Shown here: positions 4,580 to 18,579 of the stretch, piece after piece | Position numbering within the stretch: the first letter of the stretch is position 1 | Layout of the letters: each line of letters starts with the position of its first letter | DNA from: Tubulanus polymorphus | Lineage: Eukaryota > Animalia > Nemertea | Reading direction: 5' to 3' | DNA length: 64,000 bases | Assembly (NCBI RefSeq): GCF_964204645.1 | Contig: NC_134025.1 | Coordinates: 5,394,001-5,458,000 of the forward strand | Notes under the pieces: generated by a model | Databases searched by the model: none | What the model was told of the DNA's origin: nothing | The model's input: only the letters and a program-made list of their open reading frames with translations | Program-made: the position numbers and the translations under genes

Positions 4580-7041
4580 CTATTGCAATTGTTGGTAAAT
4601 GGACGAATCTTGAGAAATCTCTACTTTGTAAATCTGGCCATTGATCTTCAAAAGATCGCCAGATGAGATATCATGAATGTCCGTTTCGATTATAGTTATC
4701 GGTTCACTATCGAACTGTGAAGGAGACTCTCTACTGCTGGATACTGACTCGAGACCTTTCACAGCTGCAGCCGTATCGTCAACTATCATCGAAACAGTTT
4801 CCCTACAAGAATCGCCAAAGGCTTTAAGTACTTTACCATCATCGGCAGTTCCAGTCTCTGAATTACTCATTGTTTTTGCTTTAAAGATTGTTAACTCTTC
4901 ATTTGTGTTGGAACATGACCGGGACTTATGATTTCGCATGTGCGTGCACAAGTTCTGCTTTTTTTTCGTCACGAAATCGCAAACAATGCACTTATAATCG
5001 GAAGAAATGCCCGACTGCTGATAGTTATGCTGTCCTTCTAAATGTTTATACAAATTAATCAATTTATGAAATTTCATCGCGCATAAATTACAATGAAAGC
5101 ATTTCATTTTGTTAGAGTAGTCAGATCGAACATAGCTTTTCTTCTTGGTTTGAACATTTGTTTCTATATCTGACGCGGTACTTGCATAAGTAACACTATC
5201 TGAATTGAAATCTGGGTTGGTAGTACTAAAAGGCACATCATGCGTTGATGTACCATTTGTTGGATATGATATTTCTAAATCCTTATTTGATGCATCATCT
5301 ATTTTAGGTTGTTGGGAATCCGTTTGAAAAACTTTTGTTTGTTCATCAATATTGTGCACATCGCTACTGACACAAATTGACAATTCTGAAGTACCAGTAC
5401 CGGTAGTTCCAACATTTTCACAGTTTTTATGACGTGTTTTTACATGGCGAGTTAAGTGTTCTTTTTGCGATGCTTTATAGCTACAATAAGCGCATTCGAA
5501 TGCTCGCTCTTTGGTATGAACAACTGCATGACGCTTCAAACGACTCGCGCAATCAGTTACAAAACTACACTTTTCACAAAACAGTTTCAATTCGGGTCCT
5601 TTTGCGTGAAATTTCATGTGTTGTTTCAGATCTTTCTTATGTGTTGTTTTGAACGCGCAATTTATTTTCGGGCACTGCATTTCCACAGATGGTTCTGAAG
5701 TTGAATTCACGTCCGCGTGCTTCCGTTTCATGTGACTACGAAGATCATAAAGTTCACTTGCACATATGTAATCGCACAGAGGGCATTTGATCTTTTTTTC
5801 CTGAAAGAGTAAATTAAATGCTTAAACAGAGCAAGAATTATAGCAATATATCGTAGTTCAGGGAACATTATAAATTTGTCTTACATCGATCAAGCTATAG
5901 CAAATTTTTCCCAAAAAAAAGATATGTTTTACCTTGTGTTTGTACTGAATATGTCGATTCAGGTGGACCTTCTGACGAAATTTTTGTTCACAAAATTTGC
6001 ATATATGTGGACGTTCATCAGTGTGCGTGATCATGTGTCTTTTCAGATTACTGTTTGTTGTTGTACTAAAATCACAAACAGTGCAGGAGTATGGCTTCCA
6101 TCCTGAAATATCATAAATCAAACATTATTAATCAATTATATCAATCAAACACTCTCTTTTATAAAACATATAACAGCTTTGACAAATCCTTATATCCAGC
6201 TATGGGCATACATAAGTCAATTAACCCTTTCAGAGCTGACTAATTAATACCCTTAGTGCTGGAGATAATCTAAAAGTTTTGGAAGATTCAACCCTTGTGT
6301 GTTGAATTACGGGAATACCACTAAAGTGCGTCTACACCACAGTGCAGTGTATCGTTAGATACTTATATTTCATTAATGTTTGACAGGTGCTGCCATCTTT
6401 CATTAGAGATAAAAACTAATTACTAATTACATCAATACACTGCAGTGCGGTGTACTAGCAAAATCCATCACCGATTTATACACCGCACTGCGGTGTAGAC
6501 GCACTGAAAGGGTTAATGTACAGGCTTTAAATGAAAAATATTTGTTTCTTAAGATTCTGTTACTAAGAAACAGAATTAGGGTATCCATGTAAATTATTTT
6601 GCAAAAAAGAAACTTATCATTTACCATTGTGCAATTTCTGATGTTTATGGAAATTTGTCTGTTTTTCTGTTTTGTAAGAACAATTATTCTGCGGACATTC
6701 AAGAACTTTTTTGCTGTAATTATGATGGCTTGGCACTAATTTGTTGCCTTCTGGAATGGAGTCAGTAGACTGTATAATGGAACCACATTCACCAGATTCA
6801 GCGCCATGTCCATTAAATATTAGGCCTATTTCCAAGAGTTGAACTGGCTATAAGAATAATAAGTAAGATTAATAGACAAATGAATAGTTCTTTGTATGGT
6901 GCTTTTTTGTCTCGAATAACTTACATTTGAGTTAACAACTTCACTTGTACCATCACGAAGAATCCTGACTACCGTGGCGAGTGGCTCTTGTTCTTGATGA
7001 ACTGTTTCTGATACATCCATAGAATTTGCATGACAATGCAT
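4580..7041 (-). CDS. C2H2 zinc-finger transcription factor, about 9 fingers; coding exons 7041-6925, 6847-6625, 6102-5933, 5800-4580
   Basis: GT-AG junctions join in frame (phases 0,1,0). Fingers include CTVCDFSTTTNSNLKRHMITH, CKFCEQKFRQKVHLNRHIQYKH and CAYCSYKASQKEHLTRHVKTRH with HTDERP/HTKERA linkers. Start is ATG 7041 or 7020. Probable non-coding first exon about 7329-7440 (donor GTAAG on - strand). Orthology not assignable. Confidence 0.88.
6225..6512. mobile_element. piggyBac-like MITE (288 bp) in a ZnF intron
   Basis: TTAA on both sides (6221-6224, 6513-6516). Termini CCCTTTCAGAGC / GCACTGAAAGGG (11 of 12 inverted match). An extra internal inverted copy of the right subterminal sequence (AGTGCGTCTACACC...) lies at about 6325-6352. 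Confidence 0.8.
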
Positions 7042-7587
7042 TGATCTTAAAACATACAATTGTAAATTAAGAAAACTTTCCTTAGATTTCTTTTTATATA
7101 TAGTACCTAGAATACTGGGGTCAACTTTTTTGTATCAGGTCCCTGTGGATACGTTTCAAGCATTAATAAGGTTTTTTGGGTTGGAGGAAATTGAATTTTT
7201 TTGTGTTACTTATCTTTGATTCCATCTAACACAGTAGGTAACTTGATTGAGGGCCAATCCCCAGGCCTGATACACTGGGGTGAGATTTAAAAAATAAGAT
7301 TTAGCAACAGCTTCACAGTAATTCTTACCCTAGAAGCTGAAGTGTCAAGTTGACCCAAGTTGACAGGGAAGACCAACGCAACGACCGTGAGCAGAACGAT
7401 TCACCACCGCCCGTCCAGCTGATTATTCTCCCATTGAAATTTTCGGAGCTATCCGTCTTCCACAATTCGATTCAATTCAATTATTCTTTATTGTTCCACA
7501 TGAGCCGGCGGGGTATTCTAGGCGGCGTTGTCGGAGGTTATCAGCTGTGGCGACATATGACATGCATGATTGCACGAAACAGGTTAA

Positions 7588-7662
7588 ACTGCAGCTATGC
7601 AGCATGTCCCGTGAGAGGACCTGGGGCCTGTGACGGGACAAGGATGTCCCGTCACAGGTCCC
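7588..7662 (+). repeat. Left TIR with subterminal hairpin
   Basis: Three copies of TGTCCCGT(G/C)A(G/C)AGG. 7627-7640 and 7645-7658 form a perfect 14-bp stem with a 4-nt loop. Confidence 0.85.
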
Positions 7663-8053
7663 GATGGAAAATGAAAACTTTGCATTTCGTAGACGAAATG
7701 TCGAAAGAAACTGCACTCGATTGGTTACTATGTACACTCAAAATAATGTTAAGAACATGTTAATAATCGAAATTTGTTCGTAATTTTATTATTTCAGATC
7801 AATGATATCATCAAATCGAAACATTAAATGTAATAATGAAGATCGGATCAAGAGAAGACAGAACCACAGCTATCGAAATTTCAATTTTTAGTGTATAGAC
7901 TGACTCATACTATCGAAAATAAAGTGAATGTATCTTGACAATTTTGGTGCCAATGGTGTTAGTAACCGTTTGTTAAGCGTTACACTGCAAACAAAAGTAA
8001 AAGTGGAGGGGGCAACTTAATGGCCCTAGATCACTCTCGAGAGAGAATTCAAA

Positions 8054-9857
8054 GTGAGGGACCCGATTCAACACACTGTCCCGTGAGAAGACCCGATTCA
8101 ACTTACTGTCCCGTGAGAGGACCCGATTTCAAATACTGTCCCGTGAGAGGACCCGATTTAACACACTGTCCCGTGAGAGGGCCCAGTTTCAAATAATGTC
8201 CCGTGAGAGGGACCGATTCAACACACTGTCCCGTGAGGGGACCCGATTTTAAATGCTGTCCCGTGAGAGGACCCGGTTCAACACACTGTTCCGTGAGAGG
8301 GCCCGATTTTAAATACTGTCCCGTGAGAGGATCCGATTTTGAATACTGTCCCGTGATAGGGCCCGGTTTCAAATAATGTCCCGTGAGAGGGCCCGATTCA
8401 ACACACTGTCCCGTGAGAGGACCCGATTTTAAATACTGTCCCGTGAGAGGACCCGATTTTGAATACTGTCCCGTGAGAGGGCCCGGTTTCAAATAATGTC
8501 CCGTGAGAGGGCCCGATTCAACACACTGTCCCGTGAGAGGGCTCGATTTTAAATAATGTCCCGTGAGAGGACCCGATTCAACACACTGTCCCGTGAGAGG
8601 GTCCGGTTTTAAATACTGTCCCGTGAGATGACCCGAATCAACTTGCTGTCCCGTGAGAGGACCCGGTTCAACACACTGTCCCGTGAGAGGGCCCGATTTT
8701 AAATAATGTCCCGTGAGAGGACCCGATTCAACACACTGTCCCGTGAGAGGACCCGATTTTAAATACTGTCCCGTGAGAGGACCCGGTTCAACACACTGTT
8801 CCGTGAGAGGGCCCGATTTTAAATACTGTCCCGTGAGAGGATCCGATTTTGAATACTGTCCCGTGATAGGGCCCGGTTTCAAATAATGTCCCGTGAGAGG
8901 GCCCGATTCAACACACTGTCCCGTGAGAGGGCCCGATTTTAAATACTGTCCCGTGAGAGGACCCGATTTTGAATACTGTCCCGTGAGAGGGCCCAGTTTC
9001 AAATAATGTCCCGTGAGAGGGCCCGATTCAACACACTGTCCCGTGAGAGGACCCGATTTTAAATACTGTCCCGTGAGAGGACCCGATTTTGAATACTGTC
9101 CCGTGAGAGGGCCCGGTTTCAAATAATGTCCCGTGAGAGGGCCCGATTCAACACACTGTCCCGTGAGAGGGCCCGATTTTAAATAATGTCCCGTGAGAGG
9201 ACCCGATTCAACACACTGTCCCGTGAGAGGGTCCGGTTTTAAATACTGTCCCGTGAGATGACCCGAATCAACTTGCTGTCCCGTGAGAGGACCCGGTTCA
9301 ACACACTGTCCCGTGAGAGGGCCCGATTTTAAATAATGTCCCGTGAGAGGACCCGATTCAACACACTGTCCCGTGAGAGGACCCGATTTTAAATACTGTC
9401 CCGTTAGAGGACCCGGTTCAACACACTCTCCCGTGAGAGGACCCTATTTTAAATACTCTCCCGCGAAGGAACCCGATTTTAAATACTGTCCCGCGAGAGG
9501 GCCCGATTCAACACACTGTCCCGTGAGAGGACCCGGTTTCAAATAATGTCCCGCGAGAGGGCCCGTATCAACACACTGTCCCGTGAGAGGACTCGATTTT
9601 AAATACTGTCCCGTGAGAAGACCCGAATCAACTTGCTGTCCCGTGAGAGGGCCCGGTTTCAAATAATGTCCCGTGAGAGGGCCCGATTCAACACACTGTC
9701 CCGTGAGAGGACCCGATTTCTAATACTGTCCCGTGAGAGGACCCGAATCAACTTGCTGTCCCATGAGAGGACCCGGTTTCAAATAATGTCCCGTGAGAGG
9801 ACCCGATTCAACACACTGTCCCGTGAGAGGACCCGATTCAACACACTGTCCCGTGAG
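8054..9857 (+). repeat. Left 30-bp minisatellite array, about 60 units
   Basis: Consensus ACACACTGTC/AAATACTGTC CCGTGAGAGG ACCCGATTCA/ACCCGATTTT. Variant blocks recur at 510-bp (8351 and 8861) and 630-bp (8621 and 9251) spacing. Confidence 0.98.
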
Positions 9858-10290
9858 CCAAAAGTTGTTGAATGAGTATCTTTATGACAAATAGTGAATA
9901 TTGGTGGAATATTTCTCTATTTTGATTTGTAGGTGTCCGGCGAACGACAGGACCAAGACGATGACGTGGGCGATGATATTTCAAACGTGAGTCAAAAGTT
10001 GTTGAATAAATATCTTTATGACAAATAGTGAATATTGGTGGAATATTTCTCTATTTTGATTTATAGGTATCCGGCGAACGACAGGACCAAGACGACGACG
10101 TGGACGATGATATTTCAAACGTGAGTCAAAAGTTGTTGAACGAAAAGTTGTTGAATAAATATCTTTATGACAAATAGTGAATATTGGTGGAATATTTCTC
10201 TATTTTGATTTATAGGTGTCCGGCGAACGACAGGACCAAGACGATGACGTGGGCGATGATATTTCAAACGTGAGCCAAAAGTTGTTGCAT
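9853..10290 (+). repeat. Three tandem intron+exon units (134-149 bp), each with a 54-nt phase-0 exon
   Basis: Exons 9933-9986, 10067-10120 and 10216-10269 encode VSGERQDQDDDV(G/D)DDISN. Each is flanked by TAG and GTGAG, with near-identical introns. Confidence 0.9.
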
Positions 10291-12522
10291 GAAAACTTCA
10301 ATGTACAATATGAAAAAATGATCAAATATTGAAAAAAAATATATTTTACTGTATGAAATTACAGGTGTCCGCAGAAGACGGCTGGCTTAGATTGTATGAC
10401 GACGTCTTTGATATACAAAATCTCACCGAGGCAGAACAGATTAAAATCAGTATGAAGTTATCACTCAAAGAGTCACATCTCCGTCAGAGTGCAGAGAAAA
10501 GGCTTCAATCTCTAGTTTCCGAATCCAATCTGAATATTGTGTCGGTCGCGGATGACGGAAGCTGCTTTTTTTGCAGCTGTTGTCGAACAATTGAGGCGAG
10601 AAAACGTTGACATAACAGCACATGAGCTACGATTAATGGCTGTTTCATACCTTTCTGAAAATAGGTATTGCGCTGTAAGTAAATTAAAAACCCATTGATA
10701 TATCAAGACAGCACTACAATAAATATTATATACACATATTATGGTTTGCTTCGCTGGATGGGGCTGATAAGGCCGACTTTCTGGAGTCTCATCTGACATG
10801 GCCATTATATCTTAATAAAATGAGACAAAGAACCACCTGGGCCGATGCTTTAGTTGTCCGTGCCACAGCTGACTGTTAAGGGAGACCAATGGTACTATAT
10901 ACCAGTTCAGAGCAGTCAAACATCAATATGATAGATCCTGTCGAATGTAAAAATGCTGAACCCATCTTACTAGGGCATATTCAAGATATTCACTACGTTG
11001 CCCTAGTAAAAAGGAGCTATATCCCAAGACGACGCGTGTCAGTCGAGAGTGTCAGAGGGTAACCTTGCGGCCTAACCCACGGAAGACGGTAAGTTGATAG
11101 TATATGCCACCCCTTCTGACTATTTGGCAAAAATAATACAGCCATCAGAAGCCTTGTTCATGTCAGCTAAGGGTTAATTAATTGAATTTCATAGCGTCAA
11201 AGTGACAGTTACCTCTGAGAACCGCAGAAAAAAAGAAGACGGGTTGTCGATAAAGGAATCTACTGCGTTTGCAAGAAACCAGATGATGGAAGGTAAAGCT
11301 TAATTATATCATATAAGATCAGGCTGTTGTTTTAAGATTCAGTCGTCATTGTCGAAAAAATCTTTTACCTTCACTTTCACTTTCACTTACCTTCACTTTC
11401 AAAATTTTCTGCATTTGCATTTTAGGAAGTATTTGCAATGCGATGAATGTAGTGGGTGGTTCCATCCGAAATGTATTGGTCTGAACGAAGATACTGTGGA
11501 GAAAATTGACTATAGATGCGAAACGTGTTTTCAGGTAAGCGATGAACTAAAAAAATATTTTGATCAAATAAGCTATGCCTATATCCTTGCTATGCTATCC
11601 TTTTATACAATGTGATTGCATTCTTTTTATATAGGTACCTAAACGATTCATTAAGAGTCAGGTATGGAATCCGATACATAATGCATACGAAACTCTTGCC
11701 ATTTTCCACTAGAAAGTAATGAATCAAATGTTTTTCTTTTCGCAACTTGGCGCGGTTGAATATCACGTTTCTCGTATAATTAATGCCGAGATAAAAGACA
11801 AGTCTCACCAGTTTGTTGAATTTTTCAAACTTTTGTTGATAATATACAATCTTTGGTTTCAGAAGGCCGGAATTCAGGAGACATTTGGACTTGATTAACA
11901 AAGACCATGAAAGAGCCGAAAAAGAACTGAAAGGATATGGCTATGGGCTTTTAACTGATGGGGTAAGCATTGATAACAGAAAATATGAAATGCGTACAAA
12001 TAAATGAGCTTTCTTTCGATCATCGTAATATTCAATATTTTAAAGGGCCATGCATATCTCTATAGTGTAATGAAATCATACGTCAGCCCTACCTTTGCGG
12101 ACAAATCGTAAGTATATACATGAATCAGACGTGAAGTTTTTTTACTATATTTCGAAATAATAATCAATTCATTTCAATTACAGGAAACCATATTCAACTC
12201 GCTACATGACCCTCCGACAACATCATTCTAAAATGCTGAATTCAGTTTTTAAAGAAGGAAAGACGTAAGTTCATTCTCATCTTCTACTGCTAATTTCTTA
12301 AAAGAATTTCATCCATGTTATATTCATTGTATTTAAATATTTTTCAGGTCAGCAGTAACGTATGTTAATGACGTTTTGCTTAAAGAGGCCATTTGTTTAT
12401 TGGTGTCAACCTACCGAAATATCACATACAACGAGGCTGATATTCTTGGAAGAAGAACAGAGGCCAAAAAACTAAAAGATGTACAACGACTTATGTCCAA
12501 ATACTTCTTGCCAGATTATTGA
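9933..12522 (+). pseudogene. 5'-truncated spliced cargo gene: UIM - OTU deubiquitinase - PHD finger - PWWP3A/MUM1 C-terminal-like domain
   Basis: UIM-like LTEAEQIKISMKLSLKES. OTU motifs VADDGSCFFAAVVEQL...HELRLMAVSYL, WPLYLNKMRQRTTWAD and ILLGHIQDIHYVAL. PHD YCVCKKPDDGRKYLQCDECSGWFHPKCIG...YRCETC (11261-11534, split by an intron). Last exon YVNDVLLKEAICLLVSTYRNITYNEAD, stop 12520-12522. Lesions: T7 frameshift 10566-10572, TAA 10877, TAA 11060, TGA 11216, no canonical acceptor near 10757. Confidence 0.85.
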
Positions 12523-13449
12523 AGAGTGAAGCAGTTTTCGATTCTTAAATGGGAGCTGTTGTAGATTGGTTATCCCGTAATGATTGTATTCTATGGAATA
12601 AGTTTTCTTGTTGCGATGAATTTTTGGATTGCTAGAGATGGTCTTTGCTGAATTTTGGTAATGGTTTTAATAGGAACCAGATTGTGACATGGATGTTTGA
12701 ATTGTTGAAATGCTGTCCAGTCTTCTAATAGATGTGTGTAGTATATAGCCTATAGAAGTTCTTTGCAATGATGTTTCAGAAGTTATGAATGATGGTTGAA
12801 AGATTCCAGCCGGGGCCGAGATGGTATTGTAAATTGTTGTTAATTAGTAGATCGTTTTATCTGCCTGGTTTGTTGTCGATGTCTTATGCTGTGTACTACT
12901 TCGTGTTAAATATTATTTTTGTATTGTGTCTTAACAGACAAGGGCGTTTTCTGTCATCCAATATGAAATGATAATTTTTGGTTCAAATTATAATACATCT
13001 ATCCGGAATTGGGAAATATTGCTGAAGAGTTAAAGGGGAAATATGAAAGAATTGATGATAACCTTTTTTTACCGTGTAAAGTAATAATTAATAATTAAAT
13101 GATAAGTAATAATTTAGTTTGGCGACAAAGATTTAGTAATCTAAAATGCTAAATTGATTTCGAATTCCAACGTATGTTGTTTATGTTCAAATATGAATAA
13201 TATAGTCTTCGAATGTAATATGGTTTACAGATTTTGATAAATAAATAACTGAACATAATTTCACATATATACGATTTGTTTTATGTTTTAAGGGGACATA
13301 GCCAATTTGGCTTTTAGTACGTACATCCAGCCATCATTGTACGCATATTGTTGAAATAATAATTTCTTGTTGTAATTTTTATATATGGCAAAAATGCATT
13401 ATCATTATGAGCATGGGACTCAACATTGACAAAGTGGACAATTTCATTA

Positions 13450-16400
13450 GTCCTCTCACGGGACAGTGTGTTGAACCGAGTCCTCTCACGTGACATTCTT
13501 TGAAACCAGGTCCTCTCACGGAACAGTAAGTTGATTCGGGTCCTCTCACGGGACAGTGTGTTGAATCGGGTCCTCTCACGGGACAGTATGTTGAATCGGG
13601 TCCTCTCACGGGACATTATTTAAAAGCGGGCCCTCTCACGGGACAGTGTGTTGAATCGGGTCCTCTCACGGGACAGAGTGTTGAATCGGGCCCTCTCACG
13701 TGACATTATTTGAAACCAGGTCCTCTCACGGGACAGTGTGTTGAACCGAGTCCTCTCACGTGACATTCTTTGAAACCAGGTCCTCTCACGGGACAGTAAG
13801 TTGATTCGGGTCCTCTCACGGGACAGTGTGTTGAATCGGGTCCTCTCACGGGACAGTATGTTGAATCGGGTCCTCTCACGGGACAGTATTTAAAATAGGG
13901 TCCACTTACGGGACAGTGGGTTGAATCGGGTCCTCTCACGGGACAGTGTGTTGAACCGGGTCCTCTCACGGGACAGTATTTAAAATCGGGTTCCTTCGCG
14001 GGAGAGTATTTAAAATAGGGTCCTCTCACGGGAGAGTGTGTTGAACCGGGTCCTCTAACGGGACAGTATTTAAAATCGGGTCCTCTCACGGGACAGTGTG
14101 TTGAATCGGGTCCTCTCACGGGACAGTATTTAAAATAGGGTCCTCTAACGAGACAGTATTCAAAATCGGGTCCTCTCACGGGACAGTGTGTTGAATCGGG
14201 CCCTCTCACGTGACATTATTTGAAACCAGGTCCTCTCACGGGACAGTAAGTTGATTCGGGTCTTCTCACGGGACAGTATTTAAAATCGGGTTCCTTCGCG
14301 GGACAGTATTTAAAATAGGGTCCTCTCACGGGACAGTGTGTTGAATCGGGTCCTCTCACGGGACAGTATTTAAAATAGGGTCCTCTAACGAGACAGTATT
14401 CAAAATCGGGTCCTCTCACGGGACAGTGTGTTGAATCGGGCCCTCTCACGTGACATTATTTGAAACCAGGTCCTCTCACGGGACAGTAAGTTGATTCGGG
14501 TCTTCTCACGGGACAGTGTGTTGAATCGGGTCCTCTCACGGGACAGTATTTAAAATCGGGTTCCTTCGCGGGACAGTATTTAAAATAGGGTCCTCTCACG
14601 GGACAGTGTGTTGAATCGGGTCCTCTCACGGGACAGTATTTAAAATCGGGTTCCTTCGCGGGACAGTATTTAAAATAGGGTCCTCTCACGGGACAGTGTG
14701 TTGAATCGGGTCCTCTCACGGGACAGTATTTAAAATCGGGTTCTTTCGCGGGACAGTATTTAAAATAGGGTCCTCTCACGGGACAGTGTGTTGAATCGGG
14801 TCCTCTCACGGGACAGTATTTAAAATCGGGTTCTTTCGCGGGACAGTATTTAAAATAGGGTCCTCTCACGGGACAGTATGTTGAATCGGGTCCTCTCACG
14901 GGACATTATTTAAAAGCGGGCCCTCTCACGGGACAGTGTGTTGAATCGGGTCCTCTCACGGGACAGAGTGTTGAATCGGGCCCTCTCACGTGACATTATT
15001 TGAAACCAGGTCCTCTCACGGGACAGTGTGTTGAACCGAGTCCTCTCACGTGACATTCTTTGAAACCAGGTCCTCTCACGGGACAGTAAGTTGATTCGGG
15101 TCCTCTCACGGGACAGTGTGTTGAATCGGGTCCTCTCACGGGACAGTATGTTGAATCGGGTCCTCTCACGGGACAGTATTTAAAATAGGGTCCACTTACG
15201 GGACAGTGGGTTGAATCGGGTCCTCTCACGGGACAGTGTGTTGAACCGGGTCCTCTCACGGGACAGTATTTAAAATCGGGTTCCTTCGCGGGAGAGTATT
15301 TAAAATAGGGTCCTCTCACGGGAGAGTGTGTTGAACCGGGTCCTCTAACGGGACAGTATTTAAAATCGGGTCCTCTCACGGGACAGTGTGTTGAATCGGG
15401 TCCTCTCACGGGACAGTATTTAAAATCGGGTTCCTTCGCGGGACAGTATTTAAAATAGGGTCCTCTCACGGGACAGTGTGTTGAATCGGGTCCTCTCACG
15501 GGACAGTATTTAAAATCGGGTTCTTTCGCGGGACAGTATTTAAAATAGGGTCCTCTCACGGGACAGTGTGTTGAATCGGGTCCTCTCACGGGACAGTATT
15601 TAAAATCGGGTTCCTTCGCGGGACAGTTTTTAAAATAGGGTCCTCTCACGGGAGAGTGTGTTGAACCGGGTCCTCTAACGGGACAGTATTTAAAATCGGG
15701 TCCTCTCACGGGACAGTGTGTTGAATCGGGTCCTCTCACGGGGCAGTATTTAAAATAGGGTCCTCTAACGAGACAGTATTCAAAATCGGGTCCTCTCACG
15801 GGACAGTGTGTTGAATCGGGCCCTCTCACGTGACATTATTTGAAACCAGGTCCTCTCACGGGACAGTAAGTTGATTCGGGTCTTCTCACGGGACAGTGTG
15901 TTGAATCGGGTCCTCTCACGGGACAGTATTTAAAATCGGGTTCCTTCGCGGGACAGTATTTAAAATAGGGTCCTCTCACGGGACAGTGTGTTGAATCGGG
16001 TCCTCTCACGGGACAGTATTTAAAATCGGGTTCCTTCGCGGGACAGTATTTAAAATAGGGTCCTCTCACGGGACAGTGTGTTGAATCGGGTCCTCTCACG
16101 GGACAGTATTTAAAATCGGGTTCCTTCGCGGGACAGTATTTAAAATAGGGTCCTCTCACGGGACAGTGTGTTGAATCGGGTCCTCTCACGGGACAGTATT
16201 TAAAATCGGGTTCCTTCGCGGGACAGTATTTAAAATAGGGTCCTCTCACGGGACAGTGTGTTGAATCGGGTCCTCTCACGGACAGTATTTAAAATCGGGT
16301 TCCTTCGCGGGACAGTATTTAAAATAGGGTCCTCTCACGGGACAGTGTGTTGAATCGGGTCCTCTCACGGACAGTATTTAAAATCGGGTTCCTTCGCGGG

Positions 16401-16836
16401 ACAGTATTTAAAATAGGGTCCTCTCACGGGACAGTGTGTTGAATCGGGTCCTCTCACGGGACAGTATTTAAAATCGGGTTCCTTCGCGGGACAGTATTTA
16501 AAATAGGGTCCTCTCACGGGACAGTGTGTTGAATCGGGTCCTCTCACGGGACAGTATTTAAAATAGGGTCCTCTCACGGGACATTGTGTTGAATCGGGTC
16601 CTCTCACGGGACAGTATTTAAAATCGGGTTCCTTCGCGGGACAGTAATTGAAATAGGGTCCTCTCACGGGACAGTGTGTTGAACCGGGTCCTCTAACGGG
16701 ACAGTATTCAAAATCGGGTCCTCTCACGGAACAGTGTGTTTAATCGGGTCCTCTCACGGGACAGTATTTAAAATCGGGTCCTCTCACGGGACATTGTGTT
16801 GAATCGGGACCTCTCACGGAACGGTAACTTGAATCG
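13450..16836 (-). repeat. Right 30-bp minisatellite array, about 113 units, inverted relative to the left array
   Basis: Unit TCCTCTCACG GGACAGTGTG TTGAATCGGG is the reverse complement of the left unit. Runs of 90-bp trimers. A 1290-bp higher-order duplication (rare variants at 13621 and 14911; 13901 and 15191). Confidence 0.98.
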
Positions 16837-17091
16837 CGGGTTCCGTTGTAAAATCCTGCGTGAAAAACGTGCATTCATATCCCCTATTGTCCCCCTGGCC
16901 CTGCAGTAAATTAGAATTTTTCGGTAGGCCCTTATGTATTTATAAATGAAATCAAAATGGAAAATGTAATAATTACAATCGATAGTTGAATTTATTTATT
17001 CATAATCGTTATAGGCAGAATACATAAGAATATATAAGGGACTCGAAACCGCTAGCATTGGAATCGACGTTTCATGTATGAATTCTACATT

Positions 17092-17152
17092 TGTCCCGTG
17101 AGAGGACCCATGTCCCGTCACAGGCCCGGGTCCTCTCACGGGACGCTGCAGT
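17092..17152 (-). repeat. Right TIR with subterminal hairpin
   Basis: 17093-17109 and 17128-17144 are a perfect 17-bp inverted pair enclosing a third motif copy. Ends GCTGCAGT followed by TTAA. Confidence 0.85.
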
Positions 17153-17196
17153 TTAACTCATATGGATTGCACCAAAATGATGAAATACATCGAGAA

Positions 17197-18579
17197 ATGC
17201 TAAGATTTGGCCGTTTAATAGGTACCCAAGTTAGAAGAATGGAGCCTCGCATGAAAATCACCATCAAGGATGTTAGTAGTGGTAAGGTTGACGTAGGCCG
17301 CTGTTAGTGTTAAATCAGTTTTAACCTCTCTCTGTTCTAACCAATCAATCTTTTGCCTTTTTGGTGGTAAGGCTTCTTATAATCGGATTTTACTAACCAA
17401 CAATGTGGTTTGTGAAACTATCCGATCGTGAACCTAAACCAAAGACATCTTCTGACTTGGGTTCAATGATTTGCCAGTACGGGTTGGTCATTGATACGGT
17501 ACTTCCATTCACTATCGATTAAATTGTGACATCCCTGTATTCTTTCTTATTTCATGATATATCACTGACTTATTGAATTATCAAGCCTTAAACAATCAAT
17601 TCATTCACAATTCACTGCAATGTTTCTAATTCAAATTATATTTGTTCAAATTAATGCTTAAGTTTGATGTATCTTTCAGATGAATGTATCGTTCAAGCAA
17701 CTGAGACTCTGAACAGAGGAAATATTATTGCAATTCCAACTGACACCATATATGGTGTAGCAGGGCTTGCTCAAAATAGTGATGCGATCAGTAAGATATA
17801 TGAATTAAAGAACAGAAATCCAGAAAAACCGATTGCTATTTGTGTGGCAGATATTGAGGATGTATTTAAGTATGTTCTGTTTTTTGATTATCAAAGGTTT
17901 TTGATATATGCTTGGTTTAGAAAATTTTATGTTGGATTTTCCAGATGGGGTAAAGTAACGCTTAGTATCAATCAATTACATGAATTGCTTCCCGGACCCG
18001 TCACCTTACTGTTTGAGAGAACGAATGCTTTAAATGCAGATCTCAATCCCAAAACCAGCATCGTAGGAATCCGCATACCAGATCACAATTTCGTTCGTCA
18101 GCTTGTAAGATGTTGTGGTGGACCACTAGCACTGACTAGTGCCAATATCAGCTCTACCCGCAGTACATTAGCCATTCAGGTAGGCAACTGGGTTTGTAAT
18201 GAATTTTACTGAATTGAAAATTACTGCAGGTAATCGCATTACAACTAGATGATAACTTTATTAGCAGCATTTCATTTGCCATTGAATCTATAGGAATTCA
18301 AAGATATCTGGCCGAAATTAGATATGGTTTGTGATGGTGGTATATTAGGAGACACTTTAGAATCTCGTGCTGGATCAACTGTCGTTGATCTCTCTAAGCA
18401 GGGCCAATTCAAGATTGTAAGAGAAGGAAGGTAAGATTATCATACACATTTTTGAATGGAATCTTTCACTTATCGTTATTAAAACAATTAAATCTATCTA
18501 TTCCAGTGCATACAAGGAAACTGTAAATAAACTGGTCAAAAACTTTAATCTACAAGACACCACACAACCAGATTCGTGA
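17197..18579 (+). CDS. YRDC: Threonylcarbamoyl-AMP synthase (YrdC/Sua5 family), 239 aa; exons 17197-17281, 17680-17869, 17945-18179, 18294-18430, 18507-18579
   Basis: Motifs IAIPTDTIYG, IYELKNRNPEKP, LLPGPVT, VGIRIPDH, LALTSANIS and GSTVVDL. Exons total 720 nt in frame. N-terminus MLRFGRLIGTQVRR resembles a mitochondrial presequence. Confidence 0.95.

Follow-up and report, generated by a model that had tools for sequence, protein, structure and literature searches.

A probable foldback-type DNA transposon with its own broken OTU-PHD gene in the nemertean Tubulanus polymorphus

What is the 9.6-kb unit that lies between two TTAA tetranucleotides on contig NC_134025.1 of the nemertean Tubulanus polymorphus (RefSeq assembly GCF_964204645.1), and how does it come to be there? 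Our study addressed this question in a 64-kb stretch of the forward strand (positions 5,394,001 to 5,458,000), which is called the window here and along which all coordinates are numbered. The unit runs from 7588 (ACTGCAGC...) to 17152 (...GCTGCAGT), with TTAA at 7584-7587 and 17153-17156, and it holds two large inverted arrays of a 30-bp repeat and a spliced gene with OTU and PHD domains. We consider, with a probability of roughly 0.6, that it is a copy of a young, multi-copy, dispersed foldback-type DNA transposon, which has its own broken OTU-PHD gene and was likely moved in trans. An earlier note, made from the letters of the window, had proposed a foldback-like, transposase-less element; the inverted tandem-repeat arms uphold its foldback-like form, and read depth and the existence of paralogues uphold its membership of a real family.

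End-to-end alignment revealed terminal inverted repeats (TIRs) that are imperfect and align over ~60-110 bp with indels, the left end having a 10-bp internal duplication. A 15-bp core, GTCCCGTGAGAGGAC, occurs in both orientations within each end. As single-stranded DNA, the left end was predicted to fold into a hairpin of -29.1 kcal/mol (z -7.7) and the right end into one of -22.5 kcal/mol (z -4.4), with 0 of 200 shuffles as good in either case; a control piece from the interior of an array was unremarkable (z 0.53). The end alignment confirmed the sharp boundaries that had been described for the unit, with TTAA on each side and imperfect TIRs of ~60 bp starting at ACTGCAGC. The flanks of this one copy share nothing beyond TTAA, which is a putative target-site duplication (TSD), and they are equally readable from the same copy as TA-AACTGCAGC...GCTGCAGTT-TA, as would suit Tc1/mariner or another TA-targeting family.

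The two arrays were delimited by TRF at 8054-9857 and 13450-16836. They are mutually inverted, the arms being 82-84% complementary over ~1.8 kb, which agrees with the earlier description of two kilobase-scale inverted arrays of 30 bp. A script using fuzzy matching (≤3 changes) counted 58 units in the left array and 98 in the right, spaced at 30 bp in 56 of 57 intervals on the left and 82 of 97 on the right. Both arrays display segmentally duplicated higher-order patterns and have unit types in common. The core GTCCCGTGAGAGGAC, with ≤1 mismatch, was found 134 times in the 64-kb window, all within 7606-17144, where 0 occurrences were expected from 100 shuffles. To judge from this pattern, a 15-mer that recurs in the TIRs and, at 30-bp spacing, in the arrays would most simply be a reiterated protein-binding site. 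An exact 21-mer of the array unit gave 0 matches among metagenome contigs, and scans for Rfam families and tRNAs returned 0 of each.

Neither a second copy of the unit nor a second copy of either flank was present within the window, and copy number was estimated by mapping reads of the raw Illumina run X6 (≥90% likeness) on the parts beside the arrays, namely the left end with its flank and 9887-13442. Depth was summed over both directions, and the flank was represented by 14 bins free of other repeats. Mean depth was ~9.5 in the flank (range 5.4-15.8) and ~123 in the left end (7587-8050, 7 bins, range 107-158), which is ~13x the flank, and it rose from ~34 to ~158 at the bin boundary 7586/7587. 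Over 9887-13442 the mean was ~51 (28 bins), or ~5.4x, made up of ~6x over the OTU and PHD exons, ~4x over the C-terminal exons and 1.7x in the bin with a 26-bp indel. Logan contigs of X1, which may be the assembly's own sample and is therefore not independent, rose in depth from ~36 to 360-1217 at the left end and stood at 180-270 over the gene (~5-7.5x). Expressed as copy equivalents, roughly a dozen copies have the left end and about five have the gene. This difference between left end (~13x) and gene (~5.4x) indicates many copies without the centre, which is the pattern expected of foldback families.

A search with the last exon returned one cluster of three predicted T. polymorphus proteins, P0117 (218 aa), P0118 (167 aa) and P0119 (326 aa), which are encoded on three chromosome-sized contigs (32.06, 21.62 and 27.38 Mb) and have identical C-terminal halves; the annotated assembly behind these paralogues may differ from that of the window. 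The existence of a multi-copy family, on which the earlier note had made its proposal depend, is thus substantiated by the ~13x left-end depth and by paralogues on three contigs, and the evidence supports an OTU/PHD gene that belongs to the family and is not a one-off.

These data also bear on whether the unit is a transposon at all. A small dispersed gene family that sits within inverted satellite arrays and owes its spread to recombination or segmental duplication would accord with the failure to find a transposase, with a TSD seen on one copy only and with the ~3.6x depth of the 138-bp segment that adjoins the unit on the left (7449-7586). However, the sharp step in depth at 7587 (~34 to ~158), a left-end copy number ~3.6-fold above the adjoining flank, the identical TTAA beside both TIRs and the presence of copies on three chromosome-sized contigs make this explanation very improbable. 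Depth over the 138-bp segment reached ~3.6x in X6 and ~6.7x in X1, and its letters vary at 7469 and 7482; either the element landed in a low-copy repeat, or some copies took flanking sequence along with them.

Between the copy in the window and the dominant sequence there are at least 11 substitutions and 3 indels over ~3.56 kb, a divergence of roughly 0.3-0.4%, as counted among 40 of 170 substitution rows listed. Four of the differences fall in the gene. An acceptor at 11745 has been lost in this copy, G being present in 24 of 29 reads; a 26-bp piece with a GT donor is missing after 11802 and is present in X1 and X2 contigs; an extra base at 10712 is absent from 30 of 45 reads; and the G at 11961, which changes E to G, is A in 23 of 32 reads. 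The extra base at 10712 and the G at 11961 explain KDKRRPEF and LLTDE in the predicted proteins and mean that this copy encodes none of the three as annotated, theirs having E at LLTD(E/G). The window letters at 12159, 12287, 12492 and 12849 are nearly absent in X6 (40 of 40, 31 of 32, 36 of 36 and 46 of 47 reads differ, respectively), which hints, without proving it, that the X6 individual lacks this insertion or the haplotype that carries it.

The gene had been described as a central, spliced UIM-OTU-PHD cargo gene. A spliced gene with OTU and PHD domains is indeed present, but its start is not central and its UIM is recognized by eye only, as AEQIKISMKLSLKES resembles this motif (PF02809) and a Pfam search up to E 1 was negative for it. 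Residues 1-29 of P0119 align to 7664-7750 with 27 of 29 identical (93%), which places the ATG 77 bases from the left end, directly past the TIR hairpin, and is followed by the donor GT at 7748. The entire left array lies within intron 1. As exon 1 falls in the left terminus and the first intron encloses the left array, the gene forms part of the element itself, and 'cargo' is a misnomer for a gene that also has paralogues on three contigs. A 134/149-bp unit with a 54-nt acidic exon stands in tandem triplicate at 9852-10346; P0119 has two such exons, which indicates that exon number varies between copies.

The PHD finger (PF00628, Cys4-His-Cys3) was identified by Pfam at E 5.3e-8 with a score of 33.2 bits (cut-off 24), its first Cys pair being encoded on the preceding exon. 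The C-terminal half of the OTU domain, with the stop read as X, gave a sub-threshold Pfam match (E 0.013) and matched OTUD5 in a sequence search of the PDB at E 9.5e-4. HMMER with the OTU half against 1.84 billion representatives gave 115 matches at E ≤ 1e-3 and none at E ≤ 1e-10, the best relative being 35% identical over the matched stretches (E 1.6e-10), and weaker, shorter matches reaching 44%. Pfam OTU (PF02338) was present in 14 of the 14 relatives examined, above the cut-off in 13, and the fusion partners of these relatives were kinase, Mab-21, GT4-conflict and LRR-Roc-COR domains and, in P0024, an rve integrase. Matches to LRP4/LRP6 were rejected, as one stretch of the query was aligned to many YWTD repeats and the best single domain had an independent E value of 3.7. 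A word-based protein search found no longer proteins sharing the OTU half.

A profile of 10 OTU relatives matched four pieces of the window in collinear order between positions 3 and 143 of its 153: positions 3-20 (1.1 bits, Cys box), 18-56 (23.4 bits, in the next frame), 58-94 (37.2 bits) and 101-143 (30.5 bits, HY). These collinear matches, together with a +1 shift at a T7 run and a TAA at 10877-10879, reveal an OTU domain that is complete but broken, and with this frameshift and stop it is not a working enzyme in this copy. An X1 contig over 10245-11000 (755 nt, depth 182) is nearly identical to the window, with one substitution and one gap, which indicates that the frameshift and the TAA are common to the dominant copies; none of 12 indel rows listed out of 26 lies at the T7 run. 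A working ubiquitin module in the element was therefore not supported, as the dominant sequence of other copies already has an inactivated OTU domain. No host gene >50% identical to the OTU half was found among the 1.84 billion representatives; the best match was 35% identical in a library that includes this species' own proteins, so an extant host parent gene was not seen, which argues against recent gene capture.

The C-terminal ~165 aa are an orphan domain. The last exon and residues 160-326 of P0119 found only their own cluster in a word-based search of 5.8 billion clusters, the ESM Atlas gave no usable match for the domain, and a PDB sequence search with P0118 returned nothing below E 0.36. 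An AlphaFold2 model of P0118 consisted entirely of helices, with a pLDDT of 43, and was unfit for a fold search. A weak lead is the similarity of P0118 residues 88-141 (12184-12522) to PF20886 (PWWP3A/B C-terminal), at E 0.006-0.014 and 16-17 bits against a cut-off of 27.

This domain raises the prospect of an autonomous element, in which its own protein, through the orphan helical domain and/or the exon-1 region, would bind the 15-bp core and move the element by an undescribed mechanism or by recruiting a host nuclease. Such an account draws on the fact that this is the sole gene of the unit, that it begins within the terminus and persists in ~5 of ~13 copy equivalents, and that its C-terminal ~165 aa are intact, identical in three paralogues and, by the word-based search, without relatives. 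On the other hand, the identity of the paralogues is explained by youth and gives no evidence of selection, Pfam detected no nuclease or recombinase signature, the AlphaFold2 model was unusable, and copies without the gene region outnumber those that have it. We therefore regard autonomy as improbable. No Pfam transposase, nuclease or recombinase was found in the eight exon open reading frames (ORFs), where PHD was the only family, and 0 of 38 further non-array ORFs of this copy matched any family, which bears out the earlier statement that a transposase is absent.

FB and Galileo have TSDs of 7-9 bp. Galileo is a member of the P superfamily (PMC3573991) and Tetris a foldback relative (PMC4079207). 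The present unit has the structural marks of a foldback element, namely inverted tandem-repeat arms and a multi-copy family in which many copies lack the centre. It shares with Drosophila FB, Galileo and Tetris long inverted tandem-repeat arms of unequal length, higher-order repeats and a centre carried by only part of the copies. It differs from them in that its arrays are subterminal and not terminal, its central gene is OTU-PHD and not a transposase, and its flanks share TTAA only.

The termini of piggyBac elements are CCY...RGG. Canonical piggyBac has TTAA on both flanks in common with our unit, and it was rejected on the basis of the ACTG...CAGT ends (ACTGCAGC...GCTGCAGT) and of the lack of DDE_Tnp_1_7 in the 8 + 38 ORFs of this copy. 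Kolobok elements have a TTAA-specific 4-bp TSD and 5'-RR...YY-3' termini, occur in Nemertea and frequently carry accessory genes (PMC9587614). Here too TTAA is shared, whereas the termini are AC...GT, and neither a transposase nor a KolX-like ORF was found. In Ginger1, the transposase has a C-terminal OTU or Ulp1 domain, with PHD in one family, and the elements have a CCGG/CCGT TSD, TGTNR ends and a Gypsy-like integrase (PMC2836005). OTU and PHD are thus held in common, and the OTU relative P0024 has rve plus OTU, but our unit has TTAA flanks, ACTG ends and no rve or integrase in the ORFs of this copy. Kolobok and Ginger1 were accordingly rejected too. The earlier note was therefore correct that the termini are unlike those of Kolobok (AC...GT, not RR...YY; PMC9587614), Ginger1 (PMC2836005) being likewise unmatched, and that OTU and PHD occur as accessory domains in Ginger1 (PMC2836005) and OTU in Helentrons (PMC4067079).

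A non-autonomous Helentron (HLE2/HINE), spread by rolling-circle transposition, would account for the OTU gene as the remnant of an accessory ORF and for the arrays as HINE tandem repeats. OTU ORFs recur in Helentrons and some HINE copies are ~50% tandem repeat (PMC4067079), HLE2 elements have short TIRs, stem-loops and T^T insertion (PMC4067079, PMC11417382), and the flanks GGTT/AA... and ...GT/TTAA are readable as a T^T insertion without duplication. However, the TIRs of HLE2 are 12-16 nt long with a stem-loop after the right repeat only (PMC11417382), whereas here symmetric TIRs of ~60 bp reach to the very ends with hairpins inside both. Inverted kilobase arrays are not among the features described for HLE2. 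Autonomous HLE2 members carry RepHel (PMC11417382), and Pfam detected no trace of Rep or helicase in the 8 + 38 ORFs of this copy. Taken together, this leaves a Helentron origin with a low probability. The class of a non-autonomous DNA transposon in Repbase is decided by its TSD and by the first 11 bases of its termini (PMC4455052). A literature search, with the contents of Repbase and Dfam outside its scope, uncovered no study of transposons in T. polymorphus and no account of an OTU-PHD gene in a foldback element flanked by TTAA.

The foldback-type transposon that we favour would be mobilized by a cut-and-paste transposase encoded elsewhere, which would bind the repeated 15-bp core and insert the element at TTAA. 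In the ancestor, the UIM-like/OTU/PHD protein would have aided the element through its action on ubiquitin and chromatin. Copies with a dead OTU domain went on multiplying, which indicates that the OTU/PHD protein is dispensable in cis. In addition, a miniature inverted-repeat transposable element (MITE) of the form TTAA-CCC...GGG-TTAA, 1 kb from the unit and present in hundreds of copies, shows that elements have been integrating specifically at TTAA in this genome, although with different ends.

Several points weigh against this interpretation. Neither a transposase partner nor a longer copy was seen. The ACTG ends do not match the CCY of piggyBac. They also differ from the RR...YY of Kolobok (PMC9587614). 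The length of the TSD rests on a single copy, which is compatible with a duplication of TTAA, with one of TA and with none beside a 12-bp palindromic TIR. The depth ratios presuppose a homozygous, single-copy flank, variant copies are neither shown nor excluded among the loose-end rows listed, and the orphan C-terminal domain, to which no function is assigned, could in principle matter for mobility. The earlier proposal of a deletion derivative of a larger element is a guess, since our analysis did not reveal any longer copy that carries a DDE, tyrosine-recombinase or RepHel gene. A tentative and rather unlikely extension is an as yet undescribed lineage of foldback transposons that insert at TTAA, to which the family would belong and whose ancestor would have encoded a UIM-like/OTU/PHD/orphan-domain protein from a terminal promoter, with a transposase of a new kind or the orphan domain acting on the 30-bp arrays.

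The features of the unit are collected in Table 1. Outside the arrays the window is AT-rich (35-41% G+C), and its genes are spliced. The MITE, of piggyBac type, occupies 6221-6516 as TTAA-CCCTTTCAG...CTGAAAGGG-TTAA, with a body at 6225-6512 and CCC...GGG ends. X6 depth over 6225-6512 reached ~7,700, compared to ~9.5 for single copy, and the loose ends of its other copies start just outside TTAA, at 6220/6221 and 6516/6517; many copies have a different sequence in place of the interior stretch 6254-6375. Another short interspersed repeat lies at 7035-7172, at ~13-21x single-copy depth in X6. The neighbouring host ORFs encode a C2H2 zinc-finger protein (4580-5821, minus strand) and a Sua5/YciO/YrdC-domain protein (17655-18212, plus strand, E 3.9e-34), the element lying ~500 bp upstream of the latter.

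Table 1. Coordinates of the element and of its gene within the 64-kb window
Feature	Position	Strand	Evidence
TTAA flank, left (putative TSD)	7584..7587	.	Same tetranucleotide after right end
Left TIR: ACTGCAGC, 10-bp internal duplication, core copies in both orientations, 18-bp-stem hairpin	7588..7663	+	Alignment, folding
Exon 1, ATG at 7664, MENENFAFRRRN..., donor GT at 7748	7664..7747	+	Alignment to P0119
Left unique subterminal region, start of intron 1	7748..8053	+	~13x read depth
Left array, ~60 units of 30 bp, higher-order structure, inside intron 1	8054..9857	+	TRF, core-motif count
Three tandemly duplicated 54-nt acidic mini-exons (9933-9986, 10067-10120, 10216-10269)	9933..10269	+	134/149-bp repeat
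Exon encoding UIM-like motif and OTU Cys box (DDGSC), frameshifted (+1) in T7 run 10566-10572	10365..10674	+	OTU profile
Exon with OTU C-half including His (HY) motif; in-frame TAA 10877-10879	10712..11088	+	Pfam, PDB, HMMER, profile
Two PHD-finger exons (11228-11292, 11426-11534)	11228..11534	+	Pfam PHD E 5.3e-8
C-terminal orphan domain, modelled as all-helical, six exons, stop TGA (11635-11661, 11743-11799, 11861-11962, 12046-12107, 12184-12264, 12348-12522)	11635..12522	+	Paralogue alignment
3' non-coding region, AATAAA/ATTAAA at 13094 and 13240	12523..13449	+	
Right array, ~113 units of 30 bp, inverted relative to left array	13450..16836	-	TRF, core-motif count
Right unique subterminal region, unlike left one	16837..17092	.	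Sequence comparison
Right TIR, 17-bp-stem hairpin, ending GCTGCAGT	17093..17152	-	Alignment, folding
TTAA flank, right	17153..17156	.	

In summary, our study points to an evidently recent, well-delimited foldback-type family from Nemertea, a phylum with almost no curated transposons, and the sequences of its ends match none of the TTAA-targeting superfamilies that were compared. Its stand-alone OTU-PHD gene is integral to the element: the first exon occupies the terminus, and an array lies within an intron. With the caution that the copies that amplified already had an inactive protease, this family extends the recurrent link of DNA transposons with ubiquitin-type proteases, as seen in Ginger1, Helentrons and Ulp1-MULEs.

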